64,000 nt of DNA from Eledone cirrhosa (lineage: Eukaryota): contig OZ024750.1 of assembly GCA_964016885.1 (NCBI GenBank), forward strand, positions 20,522,001 to 20,586,000, written 5' to 3'. The notes beneath the pieces were generated by a model. That model did no database searches. It saw nothing but the letters and a program-made list of their open reading frames with translations, and was not told the DNA's origin. How positions within the stretch are numbered: position 1 is the first letter of the stretch; each line of letters starts with the position of its first letter. Shown piece after piece: positions 3,257-62,964 of this stretch. A program made the position numbers and the translations under genes.

Positions 3257-3819
3257 AAAAGATGCAATATTTAGACAAATCACAGAGGCAATAAACATAA
3301 ATGAACTCCAACCAAAATTAAATAGAAAACATGAGTGGAACAGCAACATCACAACTTACAATTAAGGACAAAATGAAAACACACACGCACATAGAAAAAA
3401 CAACCAACCAGTAACATATAAATAAACAAATAAATAAACGAATATAAACACACACAGAGACCAGGATGTAACACATGCGCAAACTAAGCACACAACACAC
3501 ACACACAAAAACAAGATGGCGTAGGACAGAACAAAGGAGAGGCACAAAAACAAAGAAAAGAATCCCCAGTCACTGAAGAGGTCACATAATGTGTGACGAA
3601 AGAACTTTGACAATATATAAACAATCATCTGGTTGTGGAACCAACCAACGAACCAGAAATGTATAAATTCCTAACTTTATAAATCTATTATAATAAATTG
3701 AAGTGAAAGCATCTGGTGCGTGTGTTTCTTATTGGCAACATGACCCTCCCAACGTATAACAATATCGGTTTCAACACACGTTTTCAGATAAAGAATCTTG
3801 CTAAACAAATTCAGAAACG

Positions 3820-61520: not shown

Positions 61521-61550
<30 letters not shown>

Positions 61551-61551
<1 letters not shown>

Positions 61552-61640
61552 AATATTTGCCCTACGGTTCTTATATATTTGATATATATTTATCTTTATC
61601 GAGCCCTCTTTGGATTTTAGTCTTCAAATTTATTATTAGT
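61551..61640. repeat. single-arm fragment of the 62604 family
   Basis: Near-identical to 62834-62921. Confidence 0.8.
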
Positions 61641-61783
61641 ACTATATATATATATATATGTAGGAAGTGAGTTTTATTGTAGTACAATAAAGCAATGCAG
61701 ATATCGGATAAGAAGCACTCTACAGTTTGTAGGACTGGAGTATGCATAATATAAGATCAAAAGATGGTTAAAGGAGTTCCATG

Positions 61784-61854
61784 TATTTTATTATGCGCAT
61801 TTCAAAAACAAACATCATCATGCAATAATATTTGTGTTTTCATCAGATAAAACA
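61784..61854 (-). ncRNA. intact type I hammerhead ribozyme (mirror copy)
   Basis: Exact reverse complement of 61956-62026. Confidence 0.88.
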
Positions 61855-61955
61855 GGAGAACATTATATGAAGGCTAAAAAACACTTGTGGATAGTGCAGT
61901 TGATTTAAAACTTCACTATCCACAAGTGTTTTTTAGCCTTCATATCATGTTCTCC

Positions 61956-62026
61956 TGTTTTATCTGATGAAAACACAAATATTATTGCATGATGATGTTT
62001 GTTTTTGAAATGCGCATAATAAAATA
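61956..62026 (+). ncRNA. intact type I hammerhead ribozyme
   Basis: uguuuuau-CUGAUGA-aaacacaaauauuauu(gcau)gaugauguuuguuuuu-GAAA-UGCGCA-UA-auaaaaua: 8-bp stem I, 16-bp stem II (one C/U mismatch), palindromic stem III. Predicted cleavage after 62018. Confidence 0.88.
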
Positions 62027-62056
62027 CATGGAACTCCTTTAACCATCTTTTGATCT

Positions 62057-62136
<80 letters not shown>

Positions 62137-62603: not shown

Positions 62604-62921
62604 TAATAATAATTAATGTGAAGACTAAAATCCGAAGAGGGCTCGATAAAGATAATATATATACAAAAATATATAAAACCATAGTGAAAATATTTATTAA
62701 AATAACAGATTGAAGTTTAAGCAAAGAATTGCTGCTTTCACCCTTAACGGGATCTTCTGAAACTAGTTTCAGAGGATCCCGTTAAGGGTGAAAGCAGCGA
62801 TTCTTTGCTTAAAATTTAATCTGTTATTTTAATAAATATTTGCTCTACGGTTCTTATATATTTGATATATATTTATCCTTATCGAGCCCTCTTTGGATTT
62901 TAGTCTTCAAATTTATTATTA
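62604..62921. mobile_element. ~160-bp-arm imperfect palindrome centred on ACTAGT (62762-62767), in (TA)n
   Basis: The arms are reverse complements with scattered mismatches. Partial family copies at ~24791-24941, 37780-37815, 37931-38000 and 61551-61640. Confidence 0.85.
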
Positions 62922-62964
62922 TTACTATATATATATATATTTATATATTTATATATTTATATAT

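Follow-up and report, generated by a model that had tools for sequence, protein, structure and literature searches.

The palindrome at 61662..62064 of the window (the whole 64,000-nucleotide stretch of Eledone cirrhosa DNA analysed here) is one of thousands of stubs, which form the class of shortest insertions made by a young Penelope-like retrotransposon (PLE) of the Hydra clade. The shape has already been published, judging by the available text of PMC8557442, PMC3846280 and PMC2377424, and the object in the window is an ordinary truncated PLE insertion. The stubs are of interest as evidence on how PLEs form inverted repeats and tails. We consider it likely, with a probability of about 0.7, that a stub is built during insertion, when two cDNAs, each primed from a different side of a (TA)n cut, are joined head-to-head near the RNA 5' end. 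At odds slightly better than even, the thousands of stubs from two Hydra PLE families would record a specific form of PLE insertion: with one capped, uncleaved sense RNA as template, a pair of RTs would start cDNAs from both strands of a single (TA)n break; each cDNA could run to the cap and copy it, and the two would be fused by their ends, head-to-head. Three marks make this reading testable: in each of two unrelated families +1 is sharp and preceded by an extra G, the 3' ends fall at two fixed sites of which each arm uses one, and the tail-less arm is biased toward being complete.

Structure of the palindrome

Two 151-bp arms (61746-61896 and 61914-62064) with a single mismatch (61864/61946) enclose a 17-nt spacer. 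A tail of 88 nt is attached on one side only (61658-61745), and (TA)n flanks the palindrome on both sides. The sequence thus confirms the geometry described in the initial annotation. Transcript positions are given 1-based, with +1 being the A of ATATGTTG.

61643..61659, no strand: left (TA)n target tract, terminating a remnant (61542-61642) that derives from a second family of Hydra PLEs
61658..61745, minus strand: tail, PLE transcript +171 to +258, ending at putative RT start site 1
61673..61691, no strand: 9-bp hairpin within the tail, 15 nt ahead of the tail end (sequence and fold)
61746..61901, minus strand: left arm, PLE transcript +15 to +170, running unbroken into the tail
61784..61854, minus strand: type I hammerhead motif (fold), predicted cut after 61792
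61899..61901, no strand: 3-nt microhomology (GTT) linking both arms (sequence)
61899..62064, plus strand: right arm, PLE transcript +5 to +170, without tail, ending at putative RT start site 2
61956..62026, plus strand: type I hammerhead motif (fold) whose stem III is palindromic; cut predicted after 62018 (+124)
62061..62131, no strand: right (TA)n target tract (sequence)

What looks like a spacer is the 10 extra nt (+5 to +14) of the farther-reaching arm. Comparison with 30 sister copies revealed that the irregularities at 61864 and 61913 are private to the window copy; hence, the sister copies have arms of 156 bp and a 7-nt loop. The window copy is without +1..+4 on either arm and is probably dead. 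No long ORF was seen near the locus. The hairpin at 61673-61691 is a possible RT-binding or start signal.

Searching with the 401-bp unit returned 697 candidates in the 3.0-Gb genome, and all 40 that were scored match over the whole length at 96-100% identity. The young age proposed in the initial annotation is upheld. These matches lie on many contigs and all 30 that were examined have different flanks; the palindrome is thus neither a chance product nor the assembly fold-back that had been named as a possible refutation. Contigs from other sequencing runs also contain the family; among those listed, none spans the window junction by 31 nt on each side.

A Hydra-clade PLE as autonomous parent

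Long head-to-head pairs contain an ORF, which at one locus (L061) comprises 821 open codons with RT (YRDD) and C-terminal GIY-YIG-like motifs. The latter region reads LIYECK..FTYFGST, as judged by eye and from an alignment. Pfam reported no domain in three ORFs, that of the parent included. We found 25 homologues of the parent ORF, the single named one coming from Argonauta hians, and by eye the protein resembles published Hydra proteins. The DKG motif is altered to DKT (HSDKTNN), the linker CxCX5C is CNCRIKNKC, the terminal CxxC and CxH are CNLC and CLH, and CCHH is absent. At the RWK position RW is retained and the third residue is T or I (RWT/RWI), where homologues carry K, R, M or F. A (TA)n target and a hammerhead in the pLTR are both present. 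Judged by sequence, the parent is a Hydra-clade PLE.

According to the available text of Craig et al. 2021 (PMC8557442), Hydra-clade EN+ PLEs share with this element the C-terminal GIY-YIG-like EN, DKT, CxCX5C, CxxC and CxH without CCHH, as well as the pLTR hammerhead, the (TA)n target, the inverted 5'-truncated copy and the one-sided tail. They differ in having RWK rather than RWT/RWI, a length of 'generally <3 kb' rather than ~3.9 kb, and a tail of 30-40 rather than 88 nt; a stub class ending at +1 with G was not found described in that text. The parent is distinct from the Hydra-1_Obim family: four motif look-ups gave nothing, and the sequence is unlike ours by eye. The initial annotation was right to connect the palindrome with the type I hammerheads that PLEs carry in their terminal repeats, and with an inverted 5'-truncated copy.

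The unit of ~3.9 kb includes a long 3' UTR. In tandem copies, 208 in number, arm and tail lead on through a 5' UTR to the start codon (ATG) at +337, which makes the tail the beginning of the transcript body. Elsewhere in the window, a 216-codon frame at 20764-20117 (minus strand) carries CNCHLPERC, which is like the linker of another Hydra-clade PLE.

Copy number, geometry and target

Genome-wide, a 22-mer of the arm has 4,853 + 4,874 = 9,727 matches. Among the first 100, 76 make up 38 head-to-head pairs at distances of 26-5,078 bp and none is in a tail-to-tail pair. The spacings are 190-220 bp in 14 pairs, other short distances in 7 and 0.8-5.1 kb in 17. All 30 top loci lie in TA tracts. The arm and locus samples behind the counts in this study were targeted and mostly come from one contig, and exact-match patterns overlook diverged copies. 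Older copies, whether of this family or of the second, also receive new insertions in their TA tracts, and nested clusters build up (L019:1966-2338; L097).

Several known element types were considered and rejected. A MITE or fold-back DNA transposon does not agree with two unlike ends, variable junctions and the existence of an RT-encoding partner, and a Helitron reading was dropped given this partner and the continuum of sizes. A non-LTR retrozyme requires at least two head-to-tail ribozyme units, as opposed to the one inverted pair found here. Nor do the ends coincide with the ribozyme cut, as expected of a retrozyme: the actual ends are +1, +170 and +258, and the cut at +124 is seldom a junction.

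Arm ends and the extra G at +1

Across 240 arms, 109 terminate at +167/+170, a further 13 at +166..+177, and 107 at +258/+260. Exactly one tail is present at 120 of 124 loci. At the other extreme, at least 1,654 stubs are joined at about +1, with varied junctions. The initial annotation had asked how many copies exist and whether their inversion point is fixed. Beyond the 697 candidates, the answer is that inversion points are not scattered at random, nor is there a single one; they cluster at +1.

This position sits in an initiator-like TCA/T context, and 4,356 arms read through it into the source context TTTTC. In the 4,262 arms with a base other than C ahead of +1, that base is G in 2,111, T in 1,581 and A in 570; the G share is 0.50, as against 0.19 expected from window composition. 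An excess of G is as expected if the mRNA cap had been copied, and from these sequences we infer that +1 is a capped Pol II start. An untemplated 5' G has been tied to cap copying for L1 (PMC9341517 and PMC11702581, available text). In this family the G may be templated otherwise, either by the cDNA end pairing at +47..+51 or by realignment at +9/+10, which give the same next base. A T precedes the G in 54 of 70 G-arms, as both templated routes predict.

Palindromes joined near the ribozyme cut (+124) number at most 41, most of them centred on the upstream stem III palindrome, which makes it likely from the junction sequences that the RNA template is uncleaved. The ends of short arms are AT-rich and target-like, and RT site 2 (+170) may be a microhomology point instead of a dedicated start. 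At two loci (L061:1415 and L078:1622) the long arm halts just past the upstream pLTR tail end (+260), as if at the other start site. Three junctions (G000:C1:53125150, C1:56027188 and C1:95831538) contain 2-3 repeats of the RNA's first 8-17 nt and resemble telomerase-like realignment or re-copying at a template end.

The two arms are not equivalent. The tail-less arm is usually the one that reaches +1, and by hand count the G-arm is without a tail in 49 of 70 cases. Where the partner is clearly truncated, this rises to 28 of 31 (hand count), and 10 such partners end at +166..+225.

Two primed cDNAs or a fold-back

Under the favoured reading, the PLE protein would cut (TA)n and extend both strands. 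Reverse transcription would start internally, at +258 on one side and at +170 on the other, with one capped, uncleaved sense RNA serving both RTs as template. Starting nearer the cap, the RT from +170 would get there first and often copy it as an extra G, while the RT from +258 would stop short. The two cDNA ends would then be joined bluntly or through microhomology. Were these two starts to be taken from the downstream pLTR instead, the outcome would be inverted copies of kb length that include the ORF.

Alternatively, one cDNA running from +258 to the RNA 5' end could fold back and self-prime, copying its own strand up to the point where an AT-rich stretch anneals to the opposite (TA)n end. 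Self-priming has been proposed before (PMC3846280, available text), a 5' hairpin (+1..+5/+47..+51) exists, and the scheme accounts for the AT-rich ends of short arms and, equally well, for the haplotypes shared between arms that are described below. However, the tail-less arm would be the product of such self-priming, yet it more often reaches +1 and bears the G. Of 70 G-arms, just 1 has its junction at the +47 hairpin site. Moreover, the commonest junction has zero loop, and in both families G occurs on both arms 1-2 nt apart, so two independently ended strands are needed. We therefore regard the fold-back as unlikely.

Recurrence of the window junction

The exact junction of the window copy, in which a +5 arm meets a +15 arm via GTT, is present at 83 other loci. 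The tail is on the +15 arm at 65 of these, on the +5 arm at 11, on neither at 6 and on both at 1. The six commonest diagnostic haplotypes, defined on 312 arms that were targeted rather than random samples, each occur both in stubs and in long read-through arms. Since same-junction stubs are found on the haplotypes of long copies and in both orientations, the junction must recur. At L018 (G000:C7:8142058) both arms are tailed, forming a full 490-bp palindrome, and the arms differ at diagnostic sites.

Within a locus, both arms carry an identical diagnostic haplotype in 98 of 124 cases, compared with a mean of 26.8 and a maximum of 42 after shuffling; the arms differ at two or more diagnostic sites in 8 of the 124. 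On this sequence evidence, both arms appear to have been made at insertion from one template. The arm homogenisation suggested by the initial annotation is superfluous, because the arms within kb-long copies are likewise 97-100% alike and share haplotypes, as if both had been made at insertion.

That annotation also raised the possibility of a replicating palindromic unit. A whole palindrome multiplying as an ambisense ribozyme element, or as a MITE-like unit with homogenised arms, could explain why one exact junction recurs at 83 loci with a 65:11 orientation bias and why many copies are 99% alike. The same junction, however, sits on many source haplotypes (the six commonest, all of them found in long copies too) and in both orientations, with the tail on either arm. 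Sizes are continuous up to ORF-bearing copies, the ends are asymmetric, and the ribozyme core would be buried in read-through RNA (see below). We judge this reading very improbable.

Still less credible is a later origin of the junction, in which a perfect palindrome already inserted lost the sequence between two GTT repeats at its tip, or an assembly artefact. The junction does equal the perfect form minus the 17 nt between two GTT. Nevertheless, a later deletion should affect either side equally, and the observed 65:11 departs from this (p = 2e-10), the bias pointing the same way as the asymmetry of insertion; an artefact is opposed by the many loci whose flanks are distinct and whose arm mismatches are private.

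A SINE-like cycle, in which an internal promoter drives outward transcription of stubs retaining +1 and the resulting RNA, one capped arm of 260 nt, is re-mobilised in trans and rebuilt into a palindrome each round, is compatible with two-primer formation of each insertion. The +1, the ribozyme and both start sites all lie within one arm, Penelope promoter elements reside in the pLTR (PMC2377424, available text), and stubs are many relative to the 208 copies continuing into the ORF. Against it, no stub-only haplotype is present among the six commonest, captured flank beyond +258 was not seen, and the window copy is without +1..+4. A cycle of this kind seems rather improbable.

A second Hydra PLE family

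Because the G in the first family could be templated, we tested a second family. The neighbouring palindrome at ~62620-62930 belongs to this second Hydra-clade PLE family, as does the remnant at 61542-61642. A 23-mer gives 25,882 matches, and ORFs reach 645 codons (L329). Its sequence is unlike that of the first family, with its own sharp start (AGTTT) and T at -1, and the window palindrome of this family is joined at its own +1. Arms terminate at +75, +112 or ~+165.

Read by eye in the first 100 of 2,734 non-T matches, the base at -1 is G in 56, A in 23 and C in 21, with a G share of 0.24 expected (p = 1e-11). This G occurs in many upstream contexts. Among the loci of 30 arms examined, two have G on each arm, separated by a single base. 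A pattern search of second-family arms found no CUGANGA core, and such palindromes therefore seem able to do without a canonical ribozyme. Just past +1 in this family there is a hammerhead-like stretch with CAGAAGA in place of CUGANGA.

The hammerhead motif

Folding places the type I core CUGANGA, GAAA and NUH together with helices I-III in each arm. On the plus strand, stem I is 61956-61963/62019-62026, CUGAUGA is 61964-61970, stem II (61971-62006) has 15 pairs plus one C.U mismatch, and GAAA is 62007-62010. The palindromic AUGCGCAU at 62010-62017 is followed by AUA, with the predicted cut after 62018; the opposite strand carries the mirror image, with its predicted cut after 61792. The initial annotation of an intact hammerhead on both strands stands insofar as each arm has a type I motif; its stem II is not the 16 clean pairs claimed, and the cuts are predictions. 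A search with hammerhead models had also been suggested, and Rfam scans listed no hammerhead match at E<=10.

The variant set comprised 18 of the 19 variants occurring at least twice, one with an indel being excluded. Pairing is kept in 98.9% of cells over these 18, with six pairs varying one-sidedly and none two-sidedly; covariation shuffles say nothing here since all changes are one-sided. Pair 10.1-11.1 is A-U in 18 of 18 variants, in contrast to the usual G-C. In computed folds, the 2-bp stem III of the monomer costs +2.9 kcal/mol and the self-duplex of the 8-mer yields -10.5 kcal/mol. As stem III is unfavourable in the monomer and the self-duplex favourable, the hammerhead is predicted to act as a dimer. 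PLE hammerheads are described as dimer-acting (PMC4209133 and PMC7761336, available text).

A switch between self-cleavage and a double-stranded rod, as the initial annotation envisaged for RNA read from either direction, is not favoured by our folds. The antisense arm is transcribed first on either strand. In folds of the growing plus-strand read-through RNA, the CUGAUGA core has an unpaired probability of at most 0.002, the one exception being a terminal base (0.285) when the prefix is at its shortest; the rod comes to -265 kcal/mol versus -16 kcal/mol for a single arm. Read-through RNA would thus be predicted to bury the ribozyme core, leaving no switch, and according to the same folds the ribozyme could be freed only in RNA that begins at the palindrome centre. 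In the window copy, the ribozyme is a passenger.

Relation to known systems

In mechanism, the favoured reading resembles the Anolis Poseidon PLE studied in vitro (Frangieh et al. 2024, PMC11167929). Its available text describes two internal RT starts bounding the tail, cutting and extension of both strands, a predicted dimer, an AT-rich target, an uncleaved RNA template and a tail that is the start of the transcript body, features with which the favoured reading agrees. That element belongs to a different clade, the text leaves joining and the second strand open, and head-to-head stubs and cap copying were not found described in it. The Penelope of Adineta vaga (Arkhipova et al. 2013, PMC3846280) shares the inverted pLTR, optional tail, palindromic junction and Inr-like pLTR motif. 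In its available text self-priming on an antisense template is put forward, whereas a capped sense template with two primers is indicated here; the same text leaves sense versus antisense template open.

Animal non-LTR retrozymes (PMC7761336 and bioRxiv 10.64898/2026.07.22.740005, available text) are likewise short, non-coding and PLE-related, with a type I hammerhead and a weak palindromic helix III. There, head-to-tail repeats are cut to monomers or circles, in contrast to one inverted pair with ends off the cut site here. L1 twin priming (PMC11702581 and PMC9341517, available text) also involves two primers on one RNA, joining through microhomology and an extra G ascribed to the cap. The inverted pieces of L1 are non-overlapping, whereas here one stretch would be copied into both cDNAs, with a palindrome as the result.

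In the available text of PMC8557442, the process that gives PLEs their inverted repeats and tails is termed undefined, and PLE stubs ending at a start site with a cap G were not found described in the open-access literature searched. If true, the favoured reading would replace antisense self-priming as the origin of PLE inverted repeats. PLE start sites would become mappable from DNA alone, and it would follow that copying requires an RNA whose hammerhead has stayed intact. Being young and having an open reading frame, the family suits a direct in vitro test. The many perfect palindromes of 150-170 bp may, in addition, supply double-stranded RNA when read through.

Further observations

We considered whether genomic arms bear an A-to-I signature. 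This was rejected: 347 arms have 108 T>C and 71 A>G changes on a T-rich reference, and strand bias is absent. The most diverged arms are older subfamilies. A contig of depth 3 over L076:5869-5998 has 12 clustered T>C changes, 8 of them at second codon positions, at a depth too low to rely on; were the source RNA, the cluster would be in keeping with A-to-I hyper-editing on the antisense strand.

Other families contribute CUGANGA-type motifs at window positions 250 (plus), 3573 (plus), 6321 (minus) and 49089 (plus). Those at 3573 and 6321 are minimal and hammerhead-like, and point apart with 2.7 kb between them.
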